From: Candidatus Eiseniibacteriota bacterium
Lineage (GTDB): Bacteria; Eisenbacteria; RBG-16-71-46; JABDJR01; JAWXBZ01
Assembly (NCBI GenBank): GCA_034440375.1
Contig: JAWXBZ010000030.1
Span: 1 to 49,817, forward strand
Direction of reading: 5' to 3'
DNA: 49,817 nucleotides
Part shown: one piece after another, positions 1 to 38,319 of the stretch
Layout of the letters: every line of letters starts with the position of its first letter
Position numbering within the stretch: position 1 is the stretch's first letter
The notes under the pieces: generated by a model
What the model was told of the DNA's origin: nothing
Seen by the model: the letters and a program-made list of their open reading frames with translations, nothing else
Databases searched by the model: none
Translations under genes and position numbers: made by a program

Positions 1-1824
1 CAGTTCATGCTCAATGAAATCCGTGTCGATCACACCGGCGCCGACGTCGACGAATACGTGGAGATCAAGGGGACGGCTGGCGCGGCGCTCACCAACCACT
101 GGCTGGTGGTCATTGGCGACGGCGCCCCAAGTGGCTGCGGCAACATAGAGAACGCCATCGATCTGAGCACTTACTCGATCCAGGCCGACGGCTACTTTGC
201 CCTTCGCGTCAGCGGCGGTGTGCCAACGCTCACCGGCTACGATGCCACCGTGGCCGGCTCCTTCGAAAACAGCGACAATCTGACGTTTCTGCTCGTGACC
301 GGAAATACGGGAATCGTCGGGAACGACGTTGACGCGGACAACAACGGCGCAATGGACTTTACCCCCTGGACAGCCATCGTGGACGAAATCGGCCTCTCCG
401 AGGGCACTGTCCCGAACTGTGTGACAGCTCTCGACGAGTACCTCTACACCGCGATCACCGTCGGCCCGGATGGGATCAACGTTCCAGGCCATGTTTACCG
501 TTGCTCGGACACGCTGGCCTGGCTGATTGGCCAGTTCAACACCGTGGGTGGCGTTGACACCCCCGGCGCCGTCAACCCGACCTGCCTCACCCCCTTCCCG
601 ACCATCCTCGTCGAGCGGCGCAACATTTGCGCGCCTCTGGGCGGCCAGGCTGTCACCGTGACGGATTCGATCACCGCGGCCACGTCGGCCACGCTCACCT
701 ACTCCGTCAATGCCGGCGCCCCGATCATGGTCGCCATGACGGCGGCCGGCAATCTCTGGTCGGCAGTCATCCCGGGACAGTCCAACGGCTCGGTTGTCAC
801 CTTCCAGGTCGTTGCCAACAACGGCTCGGGCATGGACACCGGACTCTCGCAGGGTTACTTCGTCGGCATTCGAACCATCGCCAGCCTTCGCAGCCCGCAT
901 CCGGTGACCGGCGTCGAGGCCTTCCGCTTCTACGGCGTTCGCATTGCCGGAAAGGTTACTGCGGCCCAGGGGACGTTCAGCGTGATCAACACGGACTTCT
1001 GGGTTCAGGACGCCACGGGCGGTATCCGCATCTTCAAATTCGGCCTTCCGGCCTCCAGCCCCGCCCTTGGTGACGAGGTGACGGTGGCCGGCGAGCTGGA
1101 TCAGTTCAATGGGCTCCTGGAACTCGAGAGCTCCGCCAACTGCGGCGACCTCGACATCACGATCGATTCTCCCGGTGCCCCCCCGACTCCAACGCTGATC
1201 GGTTCCTGTCAGCTCGGCGAGGCGACCGAAGGACGATTCGTCCGGATGGAGTACCCGTTCGTCGACACGACCGGCAACAACGGCCCGAACTGGGTGGGTA
1301 ACCGGACCTACAAGATTCATGATTGCGTCAGCGACACCGTATTGCTCTTCATCGATGTCGACACGAATATCGATGGAACTCCCATCACCACCCGGCAGAT
1401 CGGTATCACCGGTCTCTCCAGTCAGTTCGATACCGTGAGTCCGTTCAAGTCGGGATACCAGATCATCCCCCGCTCGCTGGCGGATCTGACCTACGTCTAT
1501 ACCGCCGGCACGCCCGGTACGCCGTCGGGTCTTCGGGCCCGCCTGTTGCCGAATGCGCCGAACCCGTTCAGCACGACCACGACGATTCGCTACGACGTGG
1601 CCGGCGCGGGTGAAGCCCGTGGCCCGCTGCCGGTGCGGATCAACCTGTACGACGTCACGGGCCGCCATGCGCGCACGCTGGTCAACGAGGCGAAGGCCCC
1701 CGGTTCCTATGAATTGACACTCGATGCCAGCCAGCTCGGCGACTCCCCGTCCGGCATCTACTTCTACGAGATGCTGATCAACGGTGTGTCGGTCGGGACG
1801 CGGAAGTTGCTGGTCAGTCGCTAG
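1..1824 (+). CDS. Secreted lamin-tail-like/Ig-like/OB-fold protein with T9SS type-A-like CTD (5'-truncated by window edge)
   Basis: Frame is open from base 1 (QFMLNEIRVD), matching the mature start of the paralogue at 37615 (QILLNEIRTD), so the signal peptide lies upstream. OB-fold-like segment (FWVQDATGGIRIF...GDEVTVAGEL). C-terminus NAPNPFSTTTTIRY...LYDVTGRHARTLV...SGIYFYEM...RKLLVSR. Confidence 0.75.
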   Translation, partial: QFMLNEIRVDHTGADVDEYVEIKGTAGAALTNHWLVVIGDGAPSGCGNIENAIDLSTYSIQADGYFALRVSGGVPTLTGYDATVAGSFENSDNLTFLLVTGNTGIVGNDVDADNNGAMDFTPWTAIVDEIGLSEGTVPNCVTALDEYLYTAITVGPDGINVPGHVYRCSDTLAWLIGQFNTVGGVDTPGAVNPTCLTPFPTILVERRNICAPLGGQAVTVTDSITAATSATLTYSVNAGAPIMVAMTAAGNLWSAVIPGQSNGSVVTFQVVANNGSGMDTGLSQGYFVGIRTIASLRSPHPVTGVEAFRFYGVRIAGKVTAAQGTFSVINTDFWVQDATGGIRIFKFGLPASSPALGDEVTVAGELDQFNGLLELESSANCGDLDITIDSPGAPPTPTLIGSCQLGEATEGRFVRMEYPFVDTTGNNGPNWVGNRTYKIHDCVSDTVLLFIDVDTNIDGTPITTRQIGITGLSSQFDTVSPFKSGYQIIPRSLADLTYVYTAGTPGTPSGLRARLLPNAPNPFSTTTTIRYDVAGAGEARGPLPVRINLYDVTGRHARTLVNEAKAPGSYELTLDASQLGDSPSGIYFYEMLINGVSVGTRKLLVSR

Positions 1825-1875
1825 TCAGCCACCTGGAAGCGTCGCGCGTTTGACGCTCCCGGTGAATCAAGCCCT

Positions 1876-1911
1876 GCAAAAGGGACCGGAGGCGACTCCG
1901 GTCCCTTTTGC
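1876..1911. terminator. Bidirectional intrinsic terminator
   Basis: Perfect 16-bp inverted repeat GCAAAAGGGACCGGAG-GCGA-CTCCGGTCCCTTTTGC between convergent genes, with an A4/T4 tract in each arm. Confidence 0.9.
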
Positions 1912-1967
1912 TGTCCGTGACGTGTCCTCTGACATCGACCATCGGGAGCCCGACGATCGCCTCTCCC

Positions 1968-2744
1968 CTATTTGCGCAGCTTGAACGTGATCGGCATCAC
2001 GACCCAGACCTCGACCGGCTTGTTCTGGGTCAGGGCGGGACGAAAGATGGCCGTCCGGGCACAGGCGATGGCCGCTTCATGCAGCATCTCCGGCCCGTCG
2101 AGGACGCGGGCCTTCAGGACTTTCCCTTCGCGGGTGATCAGGGCCTGGACGATGACCGTTCCTTCCACCCCGGCGTCAACCGCCACCTTCGGATAGACCG
2201 GCGGATCCATTCGCAGCCTTTCCGGATCGGACTCCACGGCGATGAAGTCTTCCGGTGAGGGATGCTCGTCGCCGGTCCCGGATCCGGATTCGCCCCCGAC
2301 CACGAGGGAATCCCCACCGCCCATGCCGAAATCGCCCGTCGACGTGCTCGGGATTTCCTCGGTCATTTCGGTTTGCGTGGCGATCGTCGGCGCTTCGGCC
2401 TCCATGACCGGCACCGGTTCCGGAACGCCGATGGACGGTGGTGCCACTGCCTGCGCGATGTTGAGCTGCGGCGGTGCCGGGCGGGCAATCGATGGCGGCA
2501 CACCCAGGTCCGTGTAACGGACGAGCCGAATCGGGCGCGCCGCCAATGGAGCTTGCTGCCGCGAATTCCAGAGTATCCAGAGGAGAAACAGGGCAAGCCC
2601 AAGAATGAGTGTGGTCGCGCTGGCCCAGCTCATCCACCGGACGAATTCGCGGTTCAGCGGGTGTTGCTCACCCGTCAAGGGCAGCGCGGTCGCATCCGCC
2701 AGGTTGAGGGCACCCGCCGGGCGGGTCAATACGTCGGGCTTCAT
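1968..2744 (-). CDS. tonB: Energy transducer TonB
   Basis: N-terminal TM helix, Pro-rich linker, TonB_C motifs PVYPKVAVDAGVEGTVIVQALITREGKV and FRPALTQNKPVEVWVVMPITF. Confidence 0.93.
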   Translation of the reverse strand: MKPDVLTRPAGALNLADATALPLTGEQHPLNREFVRWMSWASATTLILGLALFLLWILWNSRQQAPLAARPIRLVRYTDLGVPPSIARPAPPQLNIAQAVAPPSIGVPEPVPVMEAEAPTIATQTEMTEEIPSTSTGDFGMGGGDSLVVGGESGSGTGDEHPSPEDFIAVESDPERLRMDPPVYPKVAVDAGVEGTVIVQALITREGKVLKARVLDGPEMLHEAAIACARTAIFRPALTQNKPVEVWVVMPITFKLRK

Positions 2745-3244
2745 CGGCCGGCCGGCAGGAGGCGTTCTTCGTCGTCCGGGAGCGGCACCACGCTGAATCG
2801 TTCCATCCCGGCATCCTCGAGCGTGTCCATCATCTCGACCATCGATTCATAGCGCGCCTGGCGATGAATCTTGACCAGGATGATGAGCTCCGGATTCCGC
2901 CGCGACTCCTGATCGAAGATCCGGGCGAGATCCGTCCACGAAAGGAGGGCCACCGGCTGAACGCCGATGCGATAGGACAACCTGTCTTTTTGATCGACAA
3001 AAAGGGTCAGGACATTCTGTTCCGGAACCTTGACCTGCGCATCCGGTCCGGGCATGTTGATTTCCATGGCCAGTGGCTGGCGGAAGACGGTGGTCACCAT
3101 GAAAAAAATCAGCAACAGGAAGGCCACATCGACCATCGGCGTCATGTCGATGCGGACGGCGCCCTGCTTTTTCGACCGGCGGATTTGAATGACGTTTTCC
3201 CGCCGCGCCGGGGCGGCGCCCGTGTCGGAATCCATCTGGACCAT
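2741..3244 (-). CDS. exbD: Biopolymer transport protein ExbD/TolR
   Basis: IDMTPMVDVAFLLLIFFMV signature; 4-nt overlap with tonB. Confidence 0.93.
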   Translation of the reverse strand: MVQMDSDTGAAPARRENVIQIRRSKKQGAVRIDMTPMVDVAFLLLIFFMVTTVFRQPLAMEINMPGPDAQVKVPEQNVLTLFVDQKDRLSYRIGVQPVALLSWTDLARIFDQESRRNPELIILVKIHRQARYESMVEMMDTLEDAGMERFSVVPLPDDEERLLPAGR

Positions 3245-3676
3245 GGTCAGTTCCCCGGCTCGCCGCTGTTGCCGGCGCCATCACGAGGCCTCTTCTTCAA
3301 ATCGGTCATCAGGTTGAAGCGAAGCGCCTTGGCTTCGGCCAGCGCCTCCATCACATCCGACACGGTGCCGAAGTCAGCTCCCTTGTCCCCCTTCAGAATC
3401 ATCACGGCTCCGGGGTTCCGGCCGCGCCAGGTGACGATGGTGTCGACAAGATTCGACTTGTTCACCGGCTGCGATTCGGTGGCCTTCTCATTGGAGATGT
3501 AGATCTCACCCTCTTTGTTCACGGTCAGGATGATGGTGCCCGTCTCCGGGACTCGAATTTCGGAGCTGGACGCGGGTAGCTGTACCGATACGGCTTCCGG
3601 AGGCTTGAACTGGGTCGTTGACATGAAAAAAATCAGCAACAGGAAGGCCACATCGACCATGGGCGTCATGTCGATG
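3098..3676. repeat. 55-bp near-identical repeat shared by the two exbD genes (3098-3152 and 3622-3676)
   Basis: CATGAAAAAAATCAGCAACAGGAAGGCCACATCGACCAT[C/G]GGCGTCATGTCGATG, 54/55 identical. Confidence 0.9.
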
Positions 3677-3708
3677 TGCACGCGGGAGTGCTTCTTCCCG
3701 GCGGCCAA
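3247..3708 (-). CDS. exbD: Biopolymer transport protein ExbD/TolR (second copy)
   Basis: IDMTPMVDVAFLLLIFFMS and ILKGDKGADFGTVSDVM motifs; TTG start next to the exbB stop. Confidence 0.92.
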   Translation of the reverse strand: MAAGKKHSRVHIDMTPMVDVAFLLLIFFMSTTQFKPPEAVSVQLPASSSEIRVPETGTIILTVNKEGEIYISNEKATESQPVNKSNLVDTIVTWRGRNPGAVMILKGDKGADFGTVSDVMEALAEAKALRFNLMTDLKKRPRDGAGNSGEPGN

Positions 3709-3711
3709 GAA

Positions 3712-4437
3712 TCAGCTGTCCTTGCGTTCGCGCAGGATCGAGAGAACTTCGAAAGCGGCCTCTTCCATGTTGCTTCCGATATTCTCCACCCGCGTCGTGA
3801 AGTAGTTGTGCAGCACGATCCCGATGATGGCCGTGATCAATCCCAGGGCCGTGTTGACCAGTGCCTCGGAAATGCCGAGGGCAAGCTGGACCGCGTCCGG
3901 CGACCCCGCATGGGACATGGCACGGAAGGCGCGAATCATCCCGATGGTGGTACCCAGGAGGCCAAGCAGGGTGGCAATCGAAGCGATGGTCGAGAGGGCG
4001 TTCAGGTTTCGCTCAAGGATCGGCGTTTCCAGGGCGCTGGCCTCCTCGATGGCGCGCCGGGTTTCCGCCAGCATTTCCTTCCTGTCGACTCCCCCTCCAA
4101 CCAGGCTCTGCCAGGTGCTCAAGCCGGCGCCGATGACGTTTCCAATCGTCCCTCCCTGGATCTTGCTGGCCGCCAGCGCGCCGGCCACATCACCGGCTGC
4201 CAGCGACTTCTTGAGGGTGGCCACGAAGGCATGAGCCCCCGAACGCCCGCCGGCTCGCCAGAGCACCAGTGTCCGCTCGATGCCGTAGGTCACGACCAGG
4301 AAGAGACTGGTCAGGCCCAGGATCAAGAGCGGTCCGCCCTGCTTGATGTACTCCGGTGAATTTTTCCAGATGAGCCACGAGGCCAGCACGGAGAGAAGAA
4401 AGACCGGGACGAATATGTAGCTGCTGACGTTCTTCAT
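3712..4437 (-). CDS. exbB: MotA/TolQ/ExbB proton channel protein
   Basis: LSTIASIATLLGLLGTTIGMIRAF and GISEALVNTALGLITAI motifs. Confidence 0.95.
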   Translation of the reverse strand: MKNVSSYIFVPVFLLSVLASWLIWKNSPEYIKQGGPLLILGLTSLFLVVTYGIERTLVLWRAGGRSGAHAFVATLKKSLAAGDVAGALAASKIQGGTIGNVIGAGLSTWQSLVGGGVDRKEMLAETRRAIEEASALETPILERNLNALSTIASIATLLGLLGTTIGMIRAFRAMSHAGSPDAVQLALGISEALVNTALGLITAIIGIVLHNYFTTRVENIGSNMEEAAFEVLSILRERKDS

Positions 4438-4600
4438 GCCGAGGTACCCCCGTGGATCGAACGCGTCATTTGTGAGTCCCGGAATTCCGGGCCGGTCCGG
4501 CGACGCTCCGATAGTTCACCACGTTCGTGGGTTCGGAGCCAAGCCCCCGGTCGGTCGCGCTCGATGCGCCGCGCCGGTTGGTGCCAGGGCGGTATCCATC

Positions 4601-6421
4601 TCAGCCGCCACCCGATTGTGAGGCTCGTGCCTTTTCCAGCAATTCCATCCCCTTCTTCATCGTGACGTTTCGCGGATCGATGACCATCGCCTTGCGAAAG
4701 GCTTCCTCGCTGGCATCCAACCGGGAAAGGCCAAGATAGGCGTTTCCCAGGCCAGCCCATCCATCCGCGTTCCCGGGCTCCGCTCTCGTCGCGGCCTCGT
4801 AGGATTTCGCGGCTTCGGCGTAACGGCCGCCTCGAATCTGACAGTAGGCCACGCCGCGCAGCGCGCGCGGATTACCAGGTTCGGTGGTGAGCACCCGTCG
4901 ATATTCCGCCTCGGCGGCGGGGAGGGAATCGCTCACCGCCAGTGCCTGGGCCAGGAGAAGTCGGCCCATCGGGACGGTCGAATCGAGCGCAACCGCCCGC
5001 CGGAATGCCGGGATGGAGTCCCTCGTCCGTTTCGCCTGAAAAAAAGCGATGCCGAGGTTGAGCCAGGTCAGTGGCGCCTCCGGCTTGATTGAGAGAGACT
5101 TCTCGAAACGGACCCGTGCCGAATCCGGCCGGCCGGCATTCATGTCGAGCAATCCGTACTGAAACCACGATTCGGCCGATTCCGGTTCCAGTGCCAGGAG
5201 CTGACGGAGGCTGGTCTCGGCGGCCGCATCATTGCCGGCGTCCGTCTGCCCGGTTGCCAGCGCCGTCCAATCGGTGGCTGTCCATCCGACCGTGTCGGGG
5301 AGGGCGGCGAATTGTCGGACGGCCTCGATTCGCACCGCCTTGTCCGGACTCCGCAGGCCGGCTCGCACGCGAACGGACCGGGCCCGTGCCGAACTGCTGT
5401 CAGCTGCCAGGGCTCGCTCCACCGCTTCCAGAGCGCCCGTCGGCTGCCCCAGATCGAGTTCGGTTTCCGCCAGGGAAATCAGGGCCGCGACATCGTTCGG
5501 CACGATGTCCAGGTACCGTCGATACGCCCGCTGCGCCCGATCGTATTGCCGGGCCCGTCCAAACAGATTTCCCAGATCGAGAAATGCCGGGGCGTAGGTC
5601 GAATCGATTTGAACCGCCTTGAGGTAGCTGTCACGCGCCTCGTTGTATCGCTTCAGGCGCTGATACAACCCGCCCATGGAGTGCAGGAGGGGTGCCGTCG
5701 GGGTCTGACCCGGGGCGGCCAGCGCCTTTTCCAGCGCCCCGAGGGCCAGGGCCGGAATATTCTTCTGTTCGTAGATCGTTGCCACCAGGATGGCGTAGTC
5801 CGGATCCAGGGGAACGAGACCGGAGGCAACGAGGGCCTCGGATTCCGCGCCGGTCAGATCCTTCTGCTGTAAATAATAGAGAGCCATCCCGTGGTGATAC
5901 AGATCTTCCCCCTGCTTGACCCCGTTTCGGGACGCCCCCTTCTCGAAATGCGCCCGGGCCGATTCCAGATGCCCGGCCTCGAGGAGCATCCGCCCCCGGC
6001 CGTAATTGGCGGGCCAGAGATCATCGTCGGCGGCGAGCGCCAGATCGAACTCCATTCCGGCCTCCGCCCATCGACCGGTGCGGAGCAGAAGTCGCCCCAG
6101 CTCGGCACGAGCGCCGGGAAATTCCTCGGTCCGGCTCTTCCGAAGCTCAATGGCCTCTCGGAAGAACGCCTCGGCCTCGCCGTAGCGCCCCTCCCGCGCG
6201 GCAACCCGCCCGAGACCGTCAGCGGCCCGGTCGAGCTGGTAGCCGGCCGCTCTTGCCTCATCGAAGCGCGTCCGGGCTTCGTCCATTTGCCCCTCTTCAA
6301 GCGCCTTCGTCCCCAGCTTGATCGGGTCCGTATCCATGGGGTATGTCGGTTCGGCCTCTGCCGTTGGTGCGCCGAGCAGGATCAGGAGGAGGAAGACCGT
6401 TCCAAGGCGACCCGGGCTCAC
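4601..6421 (-). CDS. Exported tetratricopeptide-repeat protein
   Basis: Signal peptide, then many TPR units (e.g. AFLDLGNLFGRARQYDRAQRAYRRYLDIVP, GWAGLGNAYLGLSRLDASEEAFRKAMVIDP). Confidence 0.9.
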   Translation of the reverse strand: MSPGRLGTVFLLLILLGAPTAEAEPTYPMDTDPIKLGTKALEEGQMDEARTRFDEARAAGYQLDRAADGLGRVAAREGRYGEAEAFFREAIELRKSRTEEFPGARAELGRLLLRTGRWAEAGMEFDLALAADDDLWPANYGRGRMLLEAGHLESARAHFEKGASRNGVKQGEDLYHHGMALYYLQQKDLTGAESEALVASGLVPLDPDYAILVATIYEQKNIPALALGALEKALAAPGQTPTAPLLHSMGGLYQRLKRYNEARDSYLKAVQIDSTYAPAFLDLGNLFGRARQYDRAQRAYRRYLDIVPNDVAALISLAETELDLGQPTGALEAVERALAADSSSARARSVRVRAGLRSPDKAVRIEAVRQFAALPDTVGWTATDWTALATGQTDAGNDAAAETSLRQLLALEPESAESWFQYGLLDMNAGRPDSARVRFEKSLSIKPEAPLTWLNLGIAFFQAKRTRDSIPAFRRAVALDSTVPMGRLLLAQALAVSDSLPAAEAEYRRVLTTEPGNPRALRGVAYCQIRGGRYAEAAKSYEAATRAEPGNADGWAGLGNAYLGLSRLDASEEAFRKAMVIDPRNVTMKKGMELLEKARASQSGGG

Positions 6422-21057: not shown

Positions 21058-21091
21058 TTGACAGGTTGATGACCATGTGTAAACGTTTACA
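21058..21091. promoter_or_regulatory. LacI-family operator TGTAAACGTTTACA (21078-21091) downstream of a -35 TTGACA (21058-21063)
   Basis: Perfect 14-bp palindrome with central CG, typical of LacI/GalR operators. It lies between the divergent GH94 and lacI genes and covers the expected -10 position. Confidence 0.85.
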
Positions 21092-21158
21092 TGCTCGTCT
21101 GCAGCCGGTCACCTCCGAAAGTCCTTCCCTGGCGACCGGCTCCTGTCAGGAGTCGATC

Positions 21159-22205: not shown

Positions 22206-24133
22206 AACGAGCACTTACTTTCCTCTTGCCACTCGGTGGCTTCCTACTGTTCGCCGCCCCGTCGGCCAGCGCCTATGCGCCACGCCAGGACGCCATCTGG
22301 GCCCGTACCGCAACGGCTCCGATCGTCCTGGATGGAGTTCTCAACGAGGCCGGCTGGGCAGCGGCCGAATCCGTCATCGTCCAGTATGGAATCAGCACCG
22401 GGATCCCCGGCAGCGGCTGGAAAATCGAGTCCGGTTTCAATCCCACCAATCCGACAAATGCCACGCTCAAGTTCCTGGTGCGCAACAACCAGCTCTACCT
22501 GGGTGCCACCATCCGCGACAAGAGCATCGGCGGCCACTCCACATTTAATCGCTGGGATGGGCTGCTGATGGCGCTCAAGGACAGGCTGAATGGGAGCACG
22601 CCGAAACCACCATCGGAATATTTTTATTCCTGGTGGTACCCGCTGAGCCCCAATCCGCAGCCGATCGGCCAGTTGCCGATCTTTCGTGGCCGCTTCGGCG
22701 TGACCGCCCCGCTCGACAGCCTGGCCCCCGATGACACCACGCGCACGCCGGCCAACATCGCCGCCTGGGATGCCCGGATCACCATTCAGGGACAGACAAA
22801 TACCGATGCCGCGCAGGATCAGGGTTACACCGTCGAGATGCGATTCGACCTGGGTGTCATGGGCTATGACGTCACGCGCCCCGAGGGGGATATCGTCGAA
22901 TGGAACCTGTCCATTTATGACTGTGACTGCTTCTGGCCCCTGGCTCCCGCCTGCGCCGGCGGTGCCAATTTTTCGGTCAACCGGACCTGGTACCAGAGCC
23001 CGTGGGGCAACGCCTACTGGTATGACGAAGTCCATATCTTCGCCAAGCCGTCGGTGACCACGGCGAGCGGGGTCGTGCCGCCCATTCCGCCCGAAATAAA
23101 CATTCCCGAGATTCCCGGTCCGGCTCCGGTCATCGACGGAGTCTTGAGCGAGCCGATCTGGAACGATGTGCTGAGCCAGTTCGATATCCGATACGGTGAC
23201 AACGAACTGAGAGCAACCTACCCGGGCGTGGGACCGTGGCGCTCCGGCCAGTTCCAGCCCACCATCAATGGCGGAACCGCGGATGTGCTCGATCCGGGCG
23301 ATGCCACGGTCAGTGTCCTCGTCAAGGGCAACTGGCTCTACCTCGGCTTCGACGTGCGCGATGAGGCGGTCCAGTTCCACCCGGACTTCGATCGCTGGGA
23401 TGGCGCACTGATCACACTGAACGATCGTGCAACACTCGGCCCCGACAACGAACTCCTGGCCCGAAGGATCTCCTTCCAGGTCGGCGCCGGAGGCCAGGCC
23501 GTGGCGCAGGACTATCTCCTGACTCTCCTGCAGAATGGTGGCGCGCAGCTGGCGCTGTCACTCAACAACGGCACGACGGTGGATACCCTGGCCGACCAGT
23601 TTCCAGACAACGGATATACCGCCGAGCTGGCCATCAACCTGACGCATCTGGGTTACCCGACGGGCCTCGGGGATCGGATCCTGTTCCTGGGAGTCAATCT
23701 TCTGGATGGCGATTCGTTCTCGAACTTTACCGACAGCTACAGCACCCGCACCTGGTGGTTTCGTGAATACCCGGGTCAATGCTGTCCGGTCTGGGCGCAT
23801 ATCATCCCCTTCTCGACAACCGGCGTTGGGGACGAATCGCCGCGCCCGCCGGCCGGCTATCAGCTGTTCGGGGCGTTTCCGAATCCCTCGGCGCAGCCCC
23901 GAATTCGATACTCGCTGCCGGTCGCGGGCACGGTGTCCGTGTCGTTGTACGACGTCTCGGGCCGCCTGATCGAAACGCGCGCCATCGGCCGCGTGGAAGC
24001 GGGCGAGCAGGTTCTCAATCTTGACCTGTCGACCATGAGCAACGGTCTTTACCTGTATCAACTGAATATCGCCGACCCCGAAACCGGGGCGCTTCGGGCC
24101 AGTCTGCCGGGGCGGCTGGTGTTGACGAAGTAA
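22202..24133 (+). CDS. Secreted protein with two tandem CBM9-like domains and a T9SS type-A-like CTD
   Basis: APIVLDGVLNEAGW / APVIDGVLSEPIW; LYLGATIRD / LYLGFDVRD; GYTVEMRFDL / GYTAELAINL; CTD FPNPS...LYDVSGRLI...SNGLYLYQL...RLVLTK. Confidence 0.72.
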   Translation: MKRALTFLLPLGGFLLFAAPSASAYAPRQDAIWARTATAPIVLDGVLNEAGWAAAESVIVQYGISTGIPGSGWKIESGFNPTNPTNATLKFLVRNNQLYLGATIRDKSIGGHSTFNRWDGLLMALKDRLNGSTPKPPSEYFYSWWYPLSPNPQPIGQLPIFRGRFGVTAPLDSLAPDDTTRTPANIAAWDARITIQGQTNTDAAQDQGYTVEMRFDLGVMGYDVTRPEGDIVEWNLSIYDCDCFWPLAPACAGGANFSVNRTWYQSPWGNAYWYDEVHIFAKPSVTTASGVVPPIPPEINIPEIPGPAPVIDGVLSEPIWNDVLSQFDIRYGDNELRATYPGVGPWRSGQFQPTINGGTADVLDPGDATVSVLVKGNWLYLGFDVRDEAVQFHPDFDRWDGALITLNDRATLGPDNELLARRISFQVGAGGQAVAQDYLLTLLQNGGAQLALSLNNGTTVDTLADQFPDNGYTAELAINLTHLGYPTGLGDRILFLGVNLLDGDSFSNFTDSYSTRTWWFREYPGQCCPVWAHIIPFSTTGVGDESPRPPAGYQLFGAFPNPSAQPRIRYSLPVAGTVSVSLYDVSGRLIETRAIGRVEAGEQVLNLDLSTMSNGLYLYQLNIADPETGALRASLPGRLVLTK

Positions 24134-26854: not shown

Positions 26855-29800
26855 CCCGACTTATGGGCTCTTTCGGGTCGGCCGCGCGGGCGGCGGTCCT
26901 CGGGGCGATAGCGGCGCTGACCGTATCCCCCGCCTTCGCCCAGGTGACCACGCCCGTGCCGCAATCGCAGCGCGGAACGAGCGATGCCGAGCGCTCGGGG
27001 TTCCACGACGCCGGCAACATCCGTACCGTCTTCTGGAATTACGGCATGGTCGGCGACTACCCCGCCGATCCCGGCGGCGTCGACCTATCGGTCTTCCACT
27101 CGGTGGAAGTACCGAAGGGAGGCGGCATGAACTATTCGGACGGCATCACTCCGTTCGTCCTGGCCCGCATCATCCAGCGGGATGGCAGCCCCAGCTACAT
27201 CATGGAAACCGGCTTTCGCGAGCGCCAGGGATCGAGTCCCTTCTTCAATCGGATCATGCGGTTCGAGCCGCGCCCCGGCTACTTCGAGCCGAGCCCGTCC
27301 CGGAACCCGGGCCGCTCCCCCGCCGTCAGCAGCGACCCCAGAACCTGGCCGGCCCAGTGGCCGGACAAGCTCGGCGATCCGGACGATCCGGGCTGGGCCG
27401 GAAGCTGGAACGGCTACTTCGGCAAGCGCATCGTGGCCGACCAGGAAAGCTACACCGTCATGGACGACGACTATTACGACGCCTGGGACTTCCGGCCGGA
27501 CAGCCGCGACAGCACCCGCCACGGACTGGGTCTGCGCATCGAGGTCCGCGGCTTCCAGTGGGCCAATCCCCAGGCCAGCAATGTCATCTTCTGGCACTAC
27601 GACATCACGAATGAGGGGACCACCGACTACGACGACAACATCGTCTTCGGCCTGTACATGGATTCCGGTGTCGGCGGCTCGGCCCTCTCGTGCGACGGCA
27701 TCTTCGAATCCGACGACGACAACGCCTTCTTCGACCGGACCCTGAATAAGGACGTCCTGAACCTCGTCTACACCTGGGATCGATTCGGCCACGGCCGCGA
27801 TCTCTCGGGCAACTGCGGACGAACCGGCTATCTCGGCTACGCCTACATGGAAACTCCCGGCAACGCGCTGGACACCGTGGATAACGACCTGGACGGCATC
27901 ACCAACGAAGTGCGTGACGGCGGGCCGGGCGAGCGGATTGCCGGGGCAGAGGCTATTCGGCAGTACGTGACCACCCATTACAACCTGACCAACTTCGAGG
28001 CGGAGTTTGGGAAGCTGGACGATCGTCCGGCATTCCGGGCCGGTGTCTGGTACACCGGCGACGAGGACATGGACTGGACCGAAGCCGTGCAGGACCTGGG
28101 CGGTGACGGACTGCCCGATACGGATGACACCGGCGAAGGAGACGGCATCCCGACCGCCGGTGAACCCAACTTCGACCGAACGGACCTCCACGAATCGGAC
28201 CAGATCGGATTGACCGGCTTCAAGATCAACCGCATTTCGGCCGGCCAGGGAAATCCCGATCGGACCACCGACGGCGTCCTCTTTTTCACCGAGAGCAACA
28301 ACTGGCCCCAGCGCCTCTACGAGCAATTCACCCATCCCGACCCGGCCATGCGGTTCGACCGCCCGCTGGCGTCGAACTACAACATCGGATTCCTTTTTGC
28401 TTCCGGGCCGTTCAAACTGAAGGCCGGCAAGACCGAGCGGTTCAGCCTTGCCCTGGCGTACGGGGGCGATCTGAACGGGCTGCGCCGCACCGTCAAGACG
28501 GTGCAGCAGATCTATGACGCCAACTACCGGTTCGCGGTGCCCCCCCCCCTCCCCACGGCCACGGCCGAGGCGGGCGACGGCTACGTGCGCCTCTCGTGGG
28601 ACACGGTGGCCGAGCAGGGTGCCGACCCCGTGACCGGCGAGTTCGATTTCGAGGGGTACCGCATCTATCGCTCGACGGACCCGGAATTCCAGGACCCAAA
28701 GGTCATCTCGACCGGCACCGGCGCCGAGGGACTGGGGAACGGCCGGCCCATCGCCCAATTCGACCTGAACGACGAACGGAACGGCTTTTCGACCCAGACG
28801 GTGGAAGGCGTGGCCTACTACCTGGGCGACGACACCGGCCTCACCCACACCTGGACCGACACGACGGTGACCAACGGCCAAGCCTACTACTACGCGGTAA
28901 CGGCGTACGACTACGGCTCGGAGGCCCTCGACTTCTACCCATCCGAGAATGCCATCACCGCCTCGCGCACGCCGCGGGGTGGCCTCGTCCTGCCGAAGAA
29001 CGTGGTGGCCGTGCGTCCCAACCCGCGGGCCCTGGGCTACGTGGCCGCCCGCGCCGACACGGCTATCCAGATCGAGGGGCGGGGCGTCGGCACCGTTCGG
29101 GTTGAAGTGGTCAATTCGGACATCGTGCCGGCCGACCACCTGTTCAAGATCGATTTCAACACGGTCACGCCGTTCGAGGTACGCGCCACATCCTATGCGC
29201 TCATCGACAGCACGACGCACGAGGTGCTCTTCACCGACGGTACCGACTTCGAGGCCCGAGGCATCGGCGCCGTGGGCGCCGGATTGCTGCCCTTGATCAC
29301 GACCCTGCCCGGTGTCCAGATTGATCCAGCCTCCGGATTTCGACCCGGGAGCCCCACCAACACCCGCCTGCGGATATCCTACCAGCCGACGTTGAACTCC
29401 AATCTAAAGCGCCCCGGTTATCCGGACGACCTCACGATCGAATTCAGCGACACCGTCCTGGATACGTCGGTGGCGGGATTTCGGCTCCCCCCGAAGCCGG
29501 CCCGTTTTCGCGTGATCGCCCACTCGCCCGGCGGCGATCGGCAGCTCAATTTCCGATTCCAGGATGAGGACAACAGCGGCACGCTCAACCGTACCGACGA
29601 GCGGATTACCATCGTGACGTACGCGGATGCCACCCCGGCGCTCGTAGCCGACACCTGGCGCGCTGAACTCGACACGCTGGGCCAGGCCGCCCGGGGCCCG
29701 ATCGATCCGCCCGGGGCCGGCGATACCTACGATCTGCGCCTCTTGCTGCCGCTCGGTGCGGACGACGTCTTCGTCTTTACGACACGGAGCGCCACCATCA

Positions 29801-30138
29801 ACGAATCCCTGGCGCGGGAACAGTTCCGCGAAGACCCCTACGTCGTGCCGAACCCGTACGTCAGCTCCGCTTCCTTCGAACCGGGGCGGTTTGCCGTGTC
29901 GGGCCGCGGCGATCGGCGGCTCGAGTTCCGGGGATTGCCGGCCACCTGCAGCATCCGCATCTTCACGGTGCATGGCGACCTGGTGCAGACGCTTCGCCAC
30001 GAAGGAAGCGATGACGGCTACATTCCGTGGGACCTCCGGACCAAGGACAACCTCGACGTAGCACCGGGGCTCTTTCTGTTTCATGTTGACGCCGGCCCCC
30101 TGGGCACGACCGTCGGCAAGTTTGCGATCATCAAATGA
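26851..30138 (+). CDS. Large secreted TBDR-associated protein with FN3-like domain, Dx[DN]xDG motifs and T9SS-like CTD
   Basis: GTG 26851 overlaps the TBDR stop (GTGA) behind AAGGGGGA. Signal peptide ends PAFA-Q. FN3 (YVRLSWD...FEGYRIYRS...YYYAVTAYD). C-terminus YVVPNPY...IRIFTVHGDLV...PWDL...APGLFLFHV...GKFAIIK. Confidence 0.8.
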   Translation: MTRLMGSFGSAARAAVLGAIAALTVSPAFAQVTTPVPQSQRGTSDAERSGFHDAGNIRTVFWNYGMVGDYPADPGGVDLSVFHSVEVPKGGGMNYSDGITPFVLARIIQRDGSPSYIMETGFRERQGSSPFFNRIMRFEPRPGYFEPSPSRNPGRSPAVSSDPRTWPAQWPDKLGDPDDPGWAGSWNGYFGKRIVADQESYTVMDDDYYDAWDFRPDSRDSTRHGLGLRIEVRGFQWANPQASNVIFWHYDITNEGTTDYDDNIVFGLYMDSGVGGSALSCDGIFESDDDNAFFDRTLNKDVLNLVYTWDRFGHGRDLSGNCGRTGYLGYAYMETPGNALDTVDNDLDGITNEVRDGGPGERIAGAEAIRQYVTTHYNLTNFEAEFGKLDDRPAFRAGVWYTGDEDMDWTEAVQDLGGDGLPDTDDTGEGDGIPTAGEPNFDRTDLHESDQIGLTGFKINRISAGQGNPDRTTDGVLFFTESNNWPQRLYEQFTHPDPAMRFDRPLASNYNIGFLFASGPFKLKAGKTERFSLALAYGGDLNGLRRTVKTVQQIYDANYRFAVPPPLPTATAEAGDGYVRLSWDTVAEQGADPVTGEFDFEGYRIYRSTDPEFQDPKVISTGTGAEGLGNGRPIAQFDLNDERNGFSTQTVEGVAYYLGDDTGLTHTWTDTTVTNGQAYYYAVTAYDYGSEALDFYPSENAITASRTPRGGLVLPKNVVAVRPNPRALGYVAARADTAIQIEGRGVGTVRVEVVNSDIVPADHLFKIDFNTVTPFEVRATSYALIDSTTHEVLFTDGTDFEARGIGAVGAGLLPLITTLPGVQIDPASGFRPGSPTNTRLRISYQPTLNSNLKRPGYPDDLTIEFSDTVLDTSVAGFRLPPKPARFRVIAHSPGGDRQLNFRFQDEDNSGTLNRTDERITIVTYADATPALVADTWRAELDTLGQAARGPIDPPGAGDTYDLRLLLPLGADDVFVFTTRSATINESLAREQFREDPYVVPNPYVSSASFEPGRFAVSGRGDRRLEFRGLPATCSIRIFTVHGDLVQTLRHEGSDDGYIPWDLRTKDNLDVAPGLFLFHVDAGPLGTTVGKFAIIK

Positions 30139-31154
30139 GGCGGCTGACGATGTCCCGAATGGCCCTCTCCCTGCTTTTTTTGATTCTGGCCGCCCCGGCC
30201 GGGGCTCAGAGCAAGACCGGAACGACGATAGTACAGTTCCTGAACATTGAGCCGAGCGCGAGGGTGGCCGGCATGGGGAATACCGGCGTGGCCCTGGGCA
30301 ACGATCTCCAGTCGGTGTTCTACAACCCGGCCGCACTGGGCGCGCTGGAACGAAAGAGCGCGCAGCTGAGCCACAGCGAATGGTACGGGGGGGTCAACTA
30401 CGACTATGCCGCCGCGGCGTTTCCGTTCAAGGGGCTCGGCACCTTCCTCTTAAGCGTTACGGCGTTGACGTCGGGCGATATCCTCGTCCGGACCGTCAAC
30501 GCGCCGCTCGGCACCGGCGAGCAGTACTCGGTGAACGACCTCGCGCTGGGACTCGGCTTCGGCCGCCAGATCACCAGCCGGTTCGCGGCGGGCGCCCAGT
30601 TCAACTACGCCTCGGAGACGATCTGGAATTCGTCGCTCCACATCCTGACCTTTAATGTCGGGACGGTGTACAAGTTGACTGCGGACGGGCTCAAGCTCGG
30701 CGCGTGCGTCAACAACATCGGCACCCGGACATCGCTGGATGGCCGCGACCTGGCCATCCTGTTCGATCAGGATCCGGACGCGAACGGCGACAACGGGACG
30801 CTGCCGGCCACCCAGTTCACCGACGACTTTCCGGTGCCGATCCTGTTCCGGGTCGGCGTCAGCTATCCGCGACAGCTCGGGCCGCGCAGCAAGATCGTGC
30901 TGGCCATGGATGCCTTTCACCCCAGCGACAACAGCGAGAGCGTGAGTGCGGGAGCCGAGTGGCTGTTCCGGGACACGTTTGCCCTGCGAGCCGGGTACCA
31001 GCAACTCTTTCAGACGGATTCAAACGTCGGCGTCACGCTGGGCGTGGGGCTGCGCGGTGGAATCGGATACAGCCGCTTCCACCTGGATTACGCCTGGGCC
31101 GATCATGAATTTCTAGAGGAAACGCACCGACTGACACTAGCCCTGGACTTCTGA
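30135..31154 (+). CDS. PorV/PorQ-family outer-membrane beta-barrel protein
   Basis: QFLNIEPSARVAGMG...VFYNPAAL N-terminal motif, SAGAEW...FALRAGY, LDYAW...HRLTLALDF with terminal Phe. Confidence 0.85.
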   Translation: MRRLTMSRMALSLLFLILAAPAGAQSKTGTTIVQFLNIEPSARVAGMGNTGVALGNDLQSVFYNPAALGALERKSAQLSHSEWYGGVNYDYAAAAFPFKGLGTFLLSVTALTSGDILVRTVNAPLGTGEQYSVNDLALGLGFGRQITSRFAAGAQFNYASETIWNSSLHILTFNVGTVYKLTADGLKLGACVNNIGTRTSLDGRDLAILFDQDPDANGDNGTLPATQFTDDFPVPILFRVGVSYPRQLGPRSKIVLAMDAFHPSDNSESVSAGAEWLFRDTFALRAGYQQLFQTDSNVGVTLGVGLRGGIGYSRFHLDYAWADHEFLEETHRLTLALDF

Positions 31155-31195: not shown

Positions 31196-32833
31196 ATGAC
31201 ACGCACCACGATTCGCTCCACGGTCTTCGGCCGTCGCCGCACCATCTGCGGCCCGCTCCTGCTCGCCCTCCTCGTAAGCGTGCTTCGCCCGGCACCGGCC
31301 TCGGCCCTGACGACCCCTGCGCTCCTGGACACGATCCAGCACACCGCATTCAACTACTTCTGGATCGAAGCCAATCCAGCCAACGGCCTGATCAAGGATC
31401 GCAGCACCACGGGTTCGCCGGCCAGCATTGCCGCCGTCGGATTCGGTCTTTCTGCCATCTGCATTGGCATTGACCATGGTTGGGTGAGCCGGGTTGACGG
31501 GCGCCAGCGCGTCCTCACGACGCTCAATACCTTCTGGACCGGACCCCAGGGAAGCGGTGTGAACGGCTTCATGGGCTACAAGGGGCTCTTCTATCACTTT
31601 CTTGACATGTCGGTCGGGGTCCGCACCTGGGACAGCGAACTGTCAAGCATTGACACCGCGTTGCTGCTCGCCGGTGCCATCGATGCCAAGCAGTATTTCA
31701 ACACCGCGGATGCCCTGGATATCCAGGTCCGGGCGCTGGTCGACTCCATCTACCGGCGGGTGGATTGGGAATTCATGCGCGCCTCCGGAGTCGGCATCCG
31801 GATGGGCTGGAAGCCGGTCACCGGCTTCAACGGCTTCGGCACCTGGACCGGCTACAACGAGGCCATGATCATGTACCTGCTCGGGCTTGGATCCCCCACC
31901 AAGCCGCCGAATCCGAACAATCCGGGATTCATGTGGAGTAGCTGGACCGCCGGCTACGACTGGCTGACCTACTACGGCTATACCTACATCCACTTTCCCC
32001 CGCTGTTCGGCCATCAGTATTCGCACTGCTGGATCGATTATCGATACATCCAGGATAATTACACGCGAAACAAGGGGATCACCTACTTCGAGAACTCGCG
32101 CCGCGCCACGTTGGCCCAATGGCAATATTGCATCGCCAATCCGGGGGGCTTTACCGGTTACGGGCCGACCCTCTGGGGGTTGACCGCCGGTGACGGCCCC
32201 AATGGCTACGCCGCGCGTGGTGCGCCACCGGCAGAGAACGACAACGGGACCATCGCGCCGACCGCCGCCATCAGCTCTCTCCCGTTCACGCCGGACGAAG
32301 TCATTCCGACGATGCACAACTTCTTCGACAACTACCCGCTGCTCTGGGGGCCGTATGGTTTCAAGGATGGCTTCAACCTGACTTCGAATCCGGATTGGTA
32401 TGGTCCTGACGTCATTGGCATTGACCAGGGTCCGATCATCATCATGATCGAGAATTACCTGAATCAGAAGGTCTGGCTCCGGTTCATGCAGAATGTGGAT
32501 GTGCAGCGCGGCCTGACCCGGGCCGGCTTCACGGCCGTGGCTGCCGTGGACGAGCTGGTCCCCCCGATTTCTCCCTTCCAGCTGTCGCAGAACAGTCCGA
32601 ATCCGTTCCGACACTCCAGCCGAATCAGCTATCGCCTGGACGAAGCCGGACTCGTGTCCCTGACGCTTTTTGACGTGATGGGACGGACCGTGAGAACGCT
32701 GGTGAATGGCCTGCAAACTTCAGGGATCCATGATGTTACGCTGGATGGGCAGGGACTACCCTCCGGAATCTACTGGTACCGGCTGAACGCCGCCGGCCGG
32801 ACGGAAACCCGGCAGGCCCTGTTGGTTCGTTGA
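31196..32833 (+). CDS. Second GH144-type beta-1,2-glucanase, with T9SS type-A-like CTD
   Basis: Same motifs as the 7533 gene (GYNEAM, PLFGHQYSH, YFENSRRATLAQ, GIDQGPI) plus LSQNSPNPF...FDVMGRTVRTLV...LPSGIYWYRL. Confidence 0.88.
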   Translation: MTRTTIRSTVFGRRRTICGPLLLALLVSVLRPAPASALTTPALLDTIQHTAFNYFWIEANPANGLIKDRSTTGSPASIAAVGFGLSAICIGIDHGWVSRVDGRQRVLTTLNTFWTGPQGSGVNGFMGYKGLFYHFLDMSVGVRTWDSELSSIDTALLLAGAIDAKQYFNTADALDIQVRALVDSIYRRVDWEFMRASGVGIRMGWKPVTGFNGFGTWTGYNEAMIMYLLGLGSPTKPPNPNNPGFMWSSWTAGYDWLTYYGYTYIHFPPLFGHQYSHCWIDYRYIQDNYTRNKGITYFENSRRATLAQWQYCIANPGGFTGYGPTLWGLTAGDGPNGYAARGAPPAENDNGTIAPTAAISSLPFTPDEVIPTMHNFFDNYPLLWGPYGFKDGFNLTSNPDWYGPDVIGIDQGPIIIMIENYLNQKVWLRFMQNVDVQRGLTRAGFTAVAAVDELVPPISPFQLSQNSPNPFRHSSRISYRLDEAGLVSLTLFDVMGRTVRTLVNGLQTSGIHDVTLDGQGLPSGIYWYRLNAAGRTETRQALLVR

Positions 32834-32961: not shown

Positions 32962-33777
32962 GTGAGACATCTTGATTTCGGGCGACTTGGAGGGGTGGCG
33001 GTTCTTTTGACGGCAGCGGCTGTGATGGCGGCCCCGGTGGCACAAGCCACCCCGACGCCAACGACCGCTTCGTTGCATACCCGGATTTTCAACGACGATC
33101 CGTTTTCGACGTTGACCACTGTCAACGCCTACCCGGCATCGATCATCATCGATGACCTCAAGTTTCTCGGCGCCAGTGGCTTTGCGAATCGCCACGCATG
33201 GAGATTTTCCAACGACGGCACCAACCCGCTCGAGTTCGCCAATGGCGATCATTTCCGTTTCTGCGCCGACCTGTTGATCACGGGCGGCGGCGAGTGTGAG
33301 TCCGGTCTGCAGATTTCGCCCTGGTGGTCGCCGCTGGTGGACGGTGTCTTCAACGTCCGGACCACGGACGGAGAAATCGCCTGCTTCAACGGTCGCCTGC
33401 CCTTTTACAGCTTCACCGGAAGCCATGGCATCACCTACGCCAAGGGAAATACAATCCGCATGGAAATCATCTATGACCCCAACAGCAACACGATGGCGGA
33501 CCCGGCGACGATTGAGTACAAGGTCGTCTACCTCGCCAACTCCTATTCGAGCGGCCGCCTTCCATTCGACGAAGGAAATCCGTCCGAGGACCCGCCGCAC
33601 GGACTGTGGGGCATGTTGACCCCCGCCACCGCCGGTGGTCACCTGCAGTACTTTGTCGGCGGCTCGCCGAACGGCGGCAACGCCCGTGCCGAGTGGTCGA
33701 ACATCTGTTTCGAAGCGCTGGACACCGTGCCAGTCCAGGGTACGACCTGGAGCGCGATCAAGTCGCTGATCAACTAG
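32962..33777 (+). CDS. Secreted hypothetical protein with C-terminal TWSxIK tail
   Basis: GTG 32962 behind AAGGAG; signal peptide (…APVAQA); beta-rich body; ends VPVQGTTWSAIKSLIN. Confidence 0.8.
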   Translation: MRHLDFGRLGGVAVLLTAAAVMAAPVAQATPTPTTASLHTRIFNDDPFSTLTTVNAYPASIIIDDLKFLGASGFANRHAWRFSNDGTNPLEFANGDHFRFCADLLITGGGECESGLQISPWWSPLVDGVFNVRTTDGEIACFNGRLPFYSFTGSHGITYAKGNTIRMEIIYDPNSNTMADPATIEYKVVYLANSYSSGRLPFDEGNPSEDPPHGLWGMLTPATAGGHLQYFVGGSPNGGNARAEWSNICFEALDTVPVQGTTWSAIKSLIN

Positions 33778-33858: not shown

Positions 33859-33885
33859 GCTCCCGCGTAGATCGGTTGGGCGGGA

Positions 33886-37320: not shown

Positions 37321-37355
37321 CGAGTCTCCTTCGGTCGGCAGTGGAACGGGGGCAG

Positions 37356-37385
37356 ATCATGCCCCAGATCCCAGAGGGTTGGCAA
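37356..37385 (-). promoter_or_regulatory. Possible sigma70 promoter of the hpt operon
   Basis: TTGCCA-18 nt-CATGAT on the minus strand, within the relatively AT-rich divergent intergenic region. Confidence 0.35.
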
Positions 37386-37614
37386 TCGGGCAGGAGATGG
37401 AATCCACATGAGGACAGGCGACATAACGTGATTATATACAATGTCTTACGACACGATAATTCGGGACTCGCTGAAAATCGAATAGTCATCTCTTTGCTTG
37501 GAGCGACCTCACTAACCATGGTAGCATCATACAGTTATCGAATCAGAATCTCCTCGCCCCCAGATTGGGCTGGATCTGACAACACGCTCCACCAACTCGA
37601 AGGAGGATTCTCAG

Positions 37615-38319
37615 ATGAAGTTTTTGGCTAAGGCTCTTTCCGTTGCCGCGCTTGCCGTGCTCGTCAGTACCAGCGCGTCGGCCCAGATTCTGTTGAATGA
37701 GATTCGGACCGACCAGACCGGGTCGGACACCGACGAGTACGTTGAACTTGCCGGTCCGGCCGGGGCGTCTCTTGCAGGCTACTCGATCGTCGTGATCGGC
37801 GACGGGACCGGCGGTTGCGGTGTTGTTGAGGCCGCCATCAGTCTTGCCGCCTTCAGCATCCAGGCTGATGGCTATTTCGCGCTTCGCTACAGCGCGGGCG
37901 TAGCGCTCTTGACTGGTTACGACGCTACCTTGACCGGCTCTTTCGAAAACAGTGACAATCTCACATTCCTCCTGGTGACCGGCAACACCGCGGCCGTCGC
38001 AAATGACCTTGACACCAACAATGACGGCATCCTTGATACAACGCCTTGGGCGACGATCGTCGATCAGGTTGGTCTGTCAGAAGGTACGGTCGTCAATTGC
38101 ACAACTGACGAATACCTGTACACCACCACGGTCGTGGGGCCGGATGGAACCTTTGCTCCGGGACATGTCTACCGTTGCGGTGCCACCTGGCTCATCGGAC
38201 CGTTCGGGGGTGTGCTTCCCACCGGCGGTGTTGACACGGTGGGTGCGGCGAACACCAGCTGCCCGGTGCCGGTTGCCCCGTCGACCTGGAGCAATATCAA
38301 GGCACGGATCAGCAACTAG
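37615..38319 (+). CDS. Secreted lamin-tail-like domain protein with TWSxIK tail; paralogue of the N-terminal domain of 1..1824
   Basis: AAGGAGG RBS, signal peptide, LLNEIRTDQTGSDTDEYVEL, SIQADGYFALR, GSFENSDNLTFLLVTGNT; ends CPVPVAPSTWSNIKARISN. Confidence 0.88.
   Translation: MKFLAKALSVAALAVLVSTSASAQILLNEIRTDQTGSDTDEYVELAGPAGASLAGYSIVVIGDGTGGCGVVEAAISLAAFSIQADGYFALRYSAGVALLTGYDATLTGSFENSDNLTFLLVTGNTAAVANDLDTNNDGILDTTPWATIVDQVGLSEGTVVNCTTDEYLYTTTVVGPDGTFAPGHVYRCGATWLIGPFGGVLPTGGVDTVGAANTSCPVPVAPSTWSNIKARISN

Follow-up and report, generated by a model that had tools for sequence, protein, structure and literature searches.

C-terminal sorting signals define the bacterial surface proteome and secretion machinery, and new signals of this kind (LPXTG, PEP-CTERM, GlyGly-CTERM and the C-terminal domain (CTD) of the T9SS, or type IX secretion system) have each led to a new sorting enzyme or translocon. 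One passenger domain can also occur with alternative C-terminal anchors, hence the name 'choice-of-anchor' for such domains. The T9SS type A CTD is described, in the sections of two papers that treat it, as a folded beta-sandwich of ~70-100 amino acids (aa) carrying motifs B, D and E (PMC11285876, PMC11969387), and the shortest known CTDs are given in one of these as 3-stranded sheets of 40-55 aa from Prevotella intermedia (PMC11969387). Where a 2024 review deals with T9SS signals, it names only type A and type B (PMC11205867). Tripartite sorting signals are defined, in the part of the source concerned with them, as a motif, a transmembrane helix and an Arg cluster (10.1101/2023.06.07.544157). 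Here we analysed a 49,817-nucleotide stretch (hereafter the window; G+C 63.5%) of contig JAWXBZ010000030.1 from a Candidatus Eiseniibacteriota bacterium (assembly GCA_034440375.1), in which three exported proteins, P0002, P0003 and P0004, end in a short tail. Judged from its sequence, this tail fits neither the folded T9SS CTD nor the motif-helix-Arg class. We consider it, at a probability of roughly 0.55, to be a distinct class of modular C-terminal localisation signal, with ~10 core residues (~20 including the lead-in), working beside the folded T9SS CTD in Eisenbacteria and neighbouring candidate phyla of the Fibrobacterota-Chlorobiota-Bacteroidota (FCB) group.

Two proteins of the window, P0001 and P0002 (Table 1), had been described by the first-pass annotation as paralogues that share a domain of ~195 aa, with four Cys kept, and that end differently. 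Both observations hold. Residues 1-198 of P0001 and 24-219 of P0002 aligned with 130/201 identities (65%, E 2e-83, BLASTP), including all four Cys; in P0001, whose first residue corresponds exactly to the mature N-terminus of P0002, this stretch is followed by further domains and then by a T9SS type-A-like CTD, and in P0002 by the tail. The family alignment also fixed the breakpoint, the domain being common up to the invariant D207/G210/N213 of P0002 and divergent thereafter. This shared domain is lamin-tail-like: P0002 fell under the Pfam LTD cut-off (PF00932; E 1.2e-3, 19.6 bits, cut-off 34.3), which was passed by five other tail proteins, and its AlphaFold2 (AF2) model had a mean predicted local distance difference test score (pLDDT) of 89, with lamin Ig-fold domains as the best, though weak, fold matches in the PDB (E 3e-3; template-modelling (TM) score 0.33 for the query, 0.58 for the target). 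For the extra domains of P0001, Pfam gave a CBM_56 match at 27.6 bits (cut-off 27) and a DUF5689 match under its cut-off (E 0.012). The P0001 C-terminus also scored under the Pfam Por_Secre_tail cut-off of 27 (21 bits, E 4e-4), and TIGR04183 was not listed for this protein at E up to 0.1. A purpose-built CTD hidden Markov model (HMM; 20 other sequences, none from the window) matched aa 514-605 at E 1.7e-9, and the neighbouring CTDs share with the end of P0001, GIYFYEMLINGVSVGTRKLLVSR, a GxY and R-K-hydrophobic-R pattern. A CTD hidden behind a frameshift or a read-through stop codon was rejected for P0002 and P0003, whose genes are both followed by terminator-like hairpins (the one after P0002 leaves no room for a CTD), and for P0004, whose gene abuts a convergent EutN gene.

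The three tail-bearing proteins of the window are mutually unrelated, and the T-W-S-x-I-K DNA pattern matched three times in the window against 0.00 expected (100 shuffles). The 'TWSxIK' tail named in the first pass is present as written, and turned out to be a local variant of a broader [ST]-W-[GS]-x-[IVL]-K-x-[LIM]-[YF]-R-stop, preceded in its general form by (C-x-P-[VT]-P-[VT]-[ER]-x-[ST]). The distance from W to the end was nine residues in 63/76 tails, with no hydrophobic run. W-S without the final Y-R characterised all three window tails together with their closest listed homologues in all three families, and more distant listed relatives had W-G...Y-R. This concerted drift across unrelated cargo fits a shared receptor co-evolving with its signal, and would thus point to a protein as the reader of the tail. 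With E allowed up to 10, P0002, P0003, P0004 and the canonical-tail homologues still gave no match to Por_Secre_tail or TIGR04183. The tail is covered by no model in Pfam or NCBIfam, and the 31 C-terminal residues of P0002 returned no match among PDB sequences at the same limit. A search of one literature library by motif strings, which gave two irrelevant hits, and by topic found no description of such a tail and no paper joining Eisenbacteria with type IX secretion.

Homologues of the three proteins were then compared for what follows the passenger domain. In the P0002 family (120 homologues listed of 228 significant), 71 ended in the tail, 26 in PEP-CTERM (sources name Planctomycetes) and 23 otherwise; P0071, from Krumholzibacteria, has a linker and an FlgD-type CTD after the shared domain. 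In the P0003 family (120 listed of 1090 significant), the tail was present in 114, a T9SS CTD in one (P0302) and, assigned by eye, a PEP-CTERM-like membrane anchor in two (P0327 and P0378), the remaining three being truncated or duplicated. In P0327 and P0378, ...PAPGVSTWG runs directly into a membrane helix and RRQ where the tail would stand, and the S-T-W-G that they have in common with the tail hints at a possible link between it and the PEP-CTERM-like signal. The P0004 domain heads large multidomain proteins elsewhere, and only 3 of the 150 best representatives (of 1238) in this family carried the tail; T9SS CTDs, PEP-CTERM, dockerin-like repeats and further ends made up the others. Twelve of the 150 (P0147, P0150, P0173, P0176, P0190, P0196, P0199, P0218, P0247, P0251, P0260 and P0266) share another short end, approximately [YF]-[LFM]-P-[LIMV]-[IVL]-x-[RK]-stop, again without a transmembrane segment, which may be a further short C-terminal signal of another lineage.

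Across the 389 listed homologues, we counted 187 tails, 20 CTDs (picked as HMM seeds, hence a floor) and 32 PEP-CTERM-like ends (by a stricter pattern, which takes only one of P0327/P0378), and no protein combined tail and CTD. The stored proteins had no internal tail core and no CTD-bearing open reading frame (ORF) ended in the tail, in agreement with the first-pass expectation that the two do not co-occur. All forms aligned alike through the invariant D..G..N and then split into tail, PEP-CTERM, or linker plus CTD. The proposal that the tail is a modular alternative to the T9SS CTD is thereby upheld as far as modularity and the junction shared with PEP-CTERM and CTD are concerned; its option of a minimal T9SS signal is weakened, on grounds given below. 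The lamin-tail-like, P0003 and P0004 domains resemble in this respect the NCBIfam 'choice-of-anchor' domains (e.g. NF012200, NF041940), in which one passenger has alternative anchors; those families name the passenger domain, however, and not the tail.

The history of these endings was traced in a maximum-likelihood tree for which the lamin-tail-like domain was stripped of its C-terminal signals (81 rows: P0001 together with 80 homologues out of the 120 listed). P0001, with its CTD, was nested in a set of 18 rows of which 17 were tail-bearing (ultrafast bootstrap 98, SH-aLRT 93); bootstrapping of this careful tree had not fully settled (correlation 0.946), and a quick tree agreed on the nesting. 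The two CTD forms needed two changes in 200/200 bootstrap trees, and the full signal labelling needed at least four changes in the careful tree and five in the quick one. From this nesting and the minimum number of changes, the C-terminal signal has been swapped repeatedly, the P0001/P0002 pair being the product of one swap within the Eisenbacteria lineage. Three lamin-tail-like proteins forming one clade (98/85), P0096, P0110 and P0113, have further short C-termini (...DWPEY, ...EWSLY and ...EDHLY).

We further investigated the occurrence of the tail by scanning genome contigs for T-W-G-x-[IVM]-K-x-x-Y-R followed by TRR, a codon pattern that permits TGG besides stops. This gave at least 127 stretches, equivalent to at least 126 loci and at least 131 unique matches, listed in no stated order. 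Every one of the 131 unique matches listed ended in a stop codon (TAA, TAG or TGA), TGG being absent; 127 of them had 60 or more open codons upstream, three ran off their locus and one had 58. Ahead of the fixed positions a lead-in, [P/A]-[VT]-[P/A]-[VT]-[E/R]-x-[ST], was apparent, and a Cys occurred 6-16 residues upstream in 83/129 tail ORFs, mostly 9-12 before W. A phylum label was given for 67 of the 126 listed loci (hand count), comprising Eisenbacteria/Eiseniibacteriota (39), Krumholzibacteri- (9), Latescibacter- (8), uncultured Fibrobacteraceae (5), Gemmatimonadota (5) and Zixiibacteriota (1). No further phylum occurred among the 67 named loci, and none of the 126 listed was from Bacteroidota. 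Eiseniibacteriota was also the commonest taxon of the P0003 clusters in the protein Atlas. Among the matches listed, the tail is restricted to a lineage.

A looser pattern recovered 153 distinct tail ORFs from the fetched loci of other genomes, which formed 85 BLAST similarity groups after removal of the tail; 47 of these loci span only ~0.6 kb, inflating the singletons among the 85. A signal-peptide-like start, called by a home-made rule, was found in 92/100 complete tail ORFs compared to 267/1190 other ORFs. Tail proteins were small, with a median length of 239 aa (146-450) for complete ORFs, whereas the 25 of 30 complete CTD ORFs in the same loci that had a signal-peptide-like start had a median of 643 aa (230-1359). 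Pfam families were matched by 22/102 tail ORFs and by none of the other 80. These were Beta_helix (6), LTD (5), CHRD (2) and single cases of TED+Big_1, DUF11, DUF7901, DUF7450, Copper-bind, Laminin_G_3, Cleaved_Adhesin, InhA-like MAM and a weak CBM96. Tandem arrays of 4-5 paralogous small tail proteins were seen in L023 (JAPEKQ010000030.1; five) and L026 (four), and an array also in L021.

Tail and CTD occur side by side, though on separate proteins, in shared genomes and neighbourhoods, since 76 non-overlapping flanked loci (610 kb) held 107 tail ORFs (33 beyond the seeding one) together with 34 CTD ORFs in 25 loci. CTD proteins adjoining tail genes included some with choice-of-anchor D and X domains. 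Of the 49 neighbouring ORFs of at least 800 aa, 35 were tested against NCBIfam; six scored above the TIGR04183 cut-off, and none of the 35 was SprA, PorU, an exosortase or a rhombosortase. The recurrent neighbours that were neither tail nor CTD proteins were Ser/Thr kinase-STAND proteins (8 loci), ABC ATPases (6), peptidyl-prolyl isomerases (4) and amidohydrolases, all of them large general families, and were rejected as sorting machinery. When the window proteins were compared with the fetched loci (E < 1e-5), only the CTD similarities of two CTD-bearing queries were detected.

Structure prediction placed the tail outside the passenger. The P0003 model had an overall pLDDT of 90, with values above 94 for its domain (aa 40-258), whose fold matches were polysaccharide lyases, GH131 and legume lectins (E 1e-5 to 3e-4, TM ~0.4-0.5), and ~56-61 for residues 259-277, which include a helix at 269-276. 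In P0002, ~25 residues without secondary structure were followed by a helix at 225-233 (pLDDT ~80). The possibility, raised with the first-pass annotation, that the tail is an integral part of the domain fold was rejected because AF2 modelled a short helix after an unstructured linker in both proteins and because the tail is common to 85 different passenger groups. A complex prediction pairing the PorV/PorQ-family barrel of the window (aa 24-339, 68 rows) with the last 50 residues of P0003 (79 rows) scored 0.00 in two runs without controls and is evidence neither way.

These results show a tail that is terminal, modular and lineage-restricted, is carried by signal-peptide-bearing proteins, is interchangeable with known sorting signals and lies outside the passenger fold. 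If the tail forms a distinct class of localisation signal, tail proteins would be exported through Sec by their N-terminal signal peptides, as their sequence features suggest, and the passenger would fold while the tail stays exposed on a flexible linker, as in the AF2 models. A dedicated, lineage-specific receptor would then read the W, the K and the aromatic-basic pair, whose spacing from the free C-terminal carboxyl group is constant, and would carry or hold its cargo, small proteins of one domain, at the cell surface or outer membrane. A surface destination is suggested because the same passenger domains carry PEP-CTERM or a T9SS CTD elsewhere, and because the recognisable cargo consists of adhesin- and glycan-binding-type domains. 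A PorV/PorQ-type barrel would be a first candidate for this receptor. A further-reaching version, which we put forward tentatively and at a little under an even chance, has the tail as the mark of a third, undescribed sorting system: a ~10-residue tag without a transmembrane segment, (P-V-E-x-x)-[ST]-W-G-x-[IV]-K-x-L-Y-R-COOH, would be read by a receptor at the free C-terminus and, beside the T9SS CTD, would direct of the order of at least 100 small proteins per genome to the surface, a figure that extrapolates the density in the window and the locus flanks, about one tail every 17-18 kb, and is an upward-biased estimate. Its holders would be Eisenbacteria, Krumholzibacteriota, Latescibacterota, Zixibacteria and some Fibrobacterota- or Gemmatimonadota-labelled genomes.

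Several points weigh against a localisation signal of its own class. The localisation, cleavage and machinery dependence of tail proteins are inferred throughout from sequence, and the tail-gene neighbourhoods yielded no candidate receptor or processing enzyme. That tail and CTD exclude each other is almost unavoidable, as both need the C-terminus. In the scan, conservation of T-W-G, K and Y-R was set by construction, leaving only the upstream positions and the stop codon free, while 59/126 listed loci had no phylum label and labels of metagenome-assembled genomes can be wrong. The signal-peptide rule was crude, the tail helix of P0002 (pLDDT ~80) could pack against the domain, and the cargo includes one cupredoxin, whose family as a rule resides in the periplasm.

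The alternative that survives best, although we regard it as unlikely, is that a type A CTD has been cut down drastically to give the tail, which PorV and the SprA translocon would read and treat as they do other CTD cargo. The two signals have much in common. Both stand at the C-terminus of Sec-exported proteins of the FCB group, on many unrelated passengers per genome and on similar kinds of cargo, and they share genomes and loci: the tails of the window are accompanied by CTD cargo and a gene of the PorV/PorQ family, and CTD ORFs were present in 25/76 flanked loci. Both also end in hydrophobic residues and a basic last residue, with a conserved Lys/Arg 5-6 positions from the end. Among the named listed loci the tail was confined to FCB-group lineages, a group for which T9SS is reported in the sections consulted (PMC11285876, PMC11205867), and shortening has precedents in the 40-55 aa CTDs of P. 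intermedia as described in PMC11969387 and in the last 22 residues of Hbp35, which are given as sufficient in the relevant section of PMC11285876. However, the tail has ~10-20 residues in place of 40-100 and is modelled as an 8-9-residue helix rather than a beta-hairpin, sheet or sandwich. It matches neither TIGR04183 nor PF18962 and lacks motifs B and D (GxY); only its Lys resembles motif E, and this is out of register (-5 in the tail, -6 in CTDs). Moreover, 0/126 listed loci came from Bacteroidota or another classic T9SS phylum although the pattern is codon-usage neutral, and cargo size differs sharply (medians of 239 and 643 aa).

An improbable alternative is that the tail serves as an in-plane membrane anchor, a short amphipathic helix that would hold Sec-exported proteins at a membrane face within the periplasm without a receptor. 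Escherichia coli PBP5 has a C-terminal membrane anchor that offers a model; like the tail, such anchors are short and helical, lack a transmembrane segment and sit on Sec-exported proteins. The modelled 8-9-residue helix, the W, Y and basic residues typical of membrane interfaces, the replacement by the tail of PEP-CTERM (which is membrane-embedded before cleavage) and the cupredoxin cargo are all consistent with it. Yet the helical hydrophobic moment of the tail (100 degrees) was not above that of shuffled sequences, 7-43% of which reached its value. The strict sequence across dozens of families, the fixed spacing to the very C-terminus and the lead-in Cys (83/129) also exceed what a generic amphipathic anchor needs, the concerted drift described above argues for a protein receptor, and homologues with other signals are surface-directed.

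Less probable still is a docking tag with no role in transport, by which the tail would bind a scaffold or partner in the manner of dockerin and cohesin, or drive assembly, and so gather small modules on surface complexes. The small single-domain tail proteins and their frequent tandem paralogue arrays would suit this, as would the occurrence of the P0004 domain at the head of large multidomain proteins and the apparent linkage of the P0003 and PorV/PorQ families (judged by equal contig sizes only, see below). Against it, homologues carry true sorting signals at the same position, and no recurrent neighbour of the tail genes suits the part of scaffold, nor was a partner found among them.

The tail could, lastly, be a PEP-CTERM derivative that has lost its membrane helix and is still cut by an exosortase-type enzyme; its lead-in, P-[VT]-E-(P)-[ST]-T-W, resembles the PEP-CTERM consensus V-P-E-P-[ST], P0327 and P0378 pass from S-T-W-G straight into a membrane helix, and tail and PEP-CTERM substitute for each other at one junction. 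We consider this very improbable, as the design of motif, transmembrane helix and Arg cluster given in the source section defining it (10.1101/2023.06.07.544157) is missing, with 9-10 residues following W, E-P after P-[VT] occurs only in a minority, and no exosortase was seen among the examined neighbours of tail genes. What the tail does have in common with tripartite signals, as that section presents them, is a short C-terminal region on many unrelated signal-peptide proteins (153 ORFs in 85 groups; 92/100 with a signal-peptide-like start), to which can be added its direct replacement of PEP-CTERM on the lamin-tail-like domain and the frequent Cys of its lead-in.

The features of the window are collected in Table 1. 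P0003 is the last gene of a glucan-utilisation operon and stands directly after the gene for a glycoamylase-family enzyme with a CTD. The listed homologues of the P0003 and PorV/PorQ families apparently have eight contigs in common, four of them no longer than 12.5 kb (matched by equal size only), which suggests conserved linkage of the two families. The barrel matched PorV in the PDB (6h3i_F) at E 1e-7. The end of the 1268-aa protein weakly resembles the PorZ C-terminus (E 1e-3) and its gene overlaps the start of the barrel gene by 4 nt; by analogy, the two are reminiscent of a PorZ-PorQ-type pair that would hold a large protein on the surface. The wider glucan-utilisation region resembles a polysaccharide-utilisation locus, and contains two PF10091 'glycoamylase' genes, ABC sugar uptake, an F5/8-type-C protein, GH1, a 1323-aa GH94 phosphorylase-type protein, LacI, the TonB-dependent receptor, CTD cargo and the PorV/PorQ-family barrel; from PF10091 and GH94, its substrate may be beta-1,2-glucan. 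Elsewhere in the window lie a locus for a bacterial microcompartment (EutN/CcmL and BMC-domain genes, two of each, with an aldehyde dehydrogenase and a DeoC-family aldolase) and, directly downstream of P0001, a TonB, ExbD, ExbD, ExbB cluster.

Table 1 Coordinates and supporting evidence for the features of the window
Feature	Position	Strand	Description and evidence
P0001	1-1824	+	607 aa; ORF open at the 5' end of the window, signal peptide therefore outside it
P0001 passenger domain	1-594	+	Lamin-tail-like, aa 1-198; BLASTP against P0002, family alignment
P0001 extra domains	652-1485	+	CBM56-like aa 218-280, weak DUF5689-like aa 315-495; Pfam
P0001 CTD	1540-1824	+	T9SS type-A-like, aa 514-605, plus stop codon; CTD HMM, Pfam
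TonB, ExbD, ExbD, ExbB cluster	1968-4437	-
TPR protein	4601-6421
Glucan-utilisation region	7503-33777
LacI regulator	21066-22205	+
Protein with T9SS type A CTD	22202-24133	+	TIGR04183 30 bits, cut-off 23
TonB-dependent receptor	24140-26854	+
1268-aa protein	26332-30138	+	No Pfam family
PorV/PorQ-family outer-membrane barrel	30135-31154	+	T9SS-associated; NCBIfam NF033709 183.5 bits, cut-off 90
Glycoamylase-family (PF10091) enzyme with T9SS type A CTD	31196-32833	+	Pfam E 1.5e-78; TIGR04183 32.3 bits, cut-off 23
P0003	32944-33777	+	Signal peptide, ConA-like beta-sandwich aa 40-258, linker, tail; ends TTWSAIKSLIN
P0003 tail core	33745-33774	+	TWSAIKSLIN
Terminator-like hairpin after P0003	33825-33852
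P0002	37615-38319	+	234 aa; AGGAGG ribosome-binding site, signal peptide, end STWSNIKARISN
P0002 signal peptide	37615-37683	+	aa 1-23 (...SASA/QILL), AGGAGG ahead; sequence, modelled helix 2-17
P0002 domain	37684-38253	+	Lamin-tail-like, aa 24-213; Pfam LTD under cut-off, AF2, PDB fold matches
P0002 linker and tail	38254-38319	+	aa 214-234; core TWSNIKARISN at 38284-38316, then stop
Terminator-like hairpin 3' of P0002	38357-38385	+	12-bp stem, then T-rich run
P0004	38421-39233	+	Secreted; ends TTWSRIKSLGR
P0004 tail core	39201-39230	+	TWSRIKSLGR
Bacterial microcompartment locus	39230-43743	-

In several uncultured phyla of soils and sediments, a large part of the small secreted proteins bear the tail, which also occurs in polysaccharide-utilisation loci. 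Its recognition would improve the prediction of localisation in these phyla, where tail proteins are at present 'hypothetical', and would offer phylogenetic profiling a starting point in the search for the receptor. It would also provide a test of the smallest signal that can be read by a sorting route of the outer membrane, for which the P0001/P0002 pair, with one domain and two signals in one genome, offers a natural experiment.

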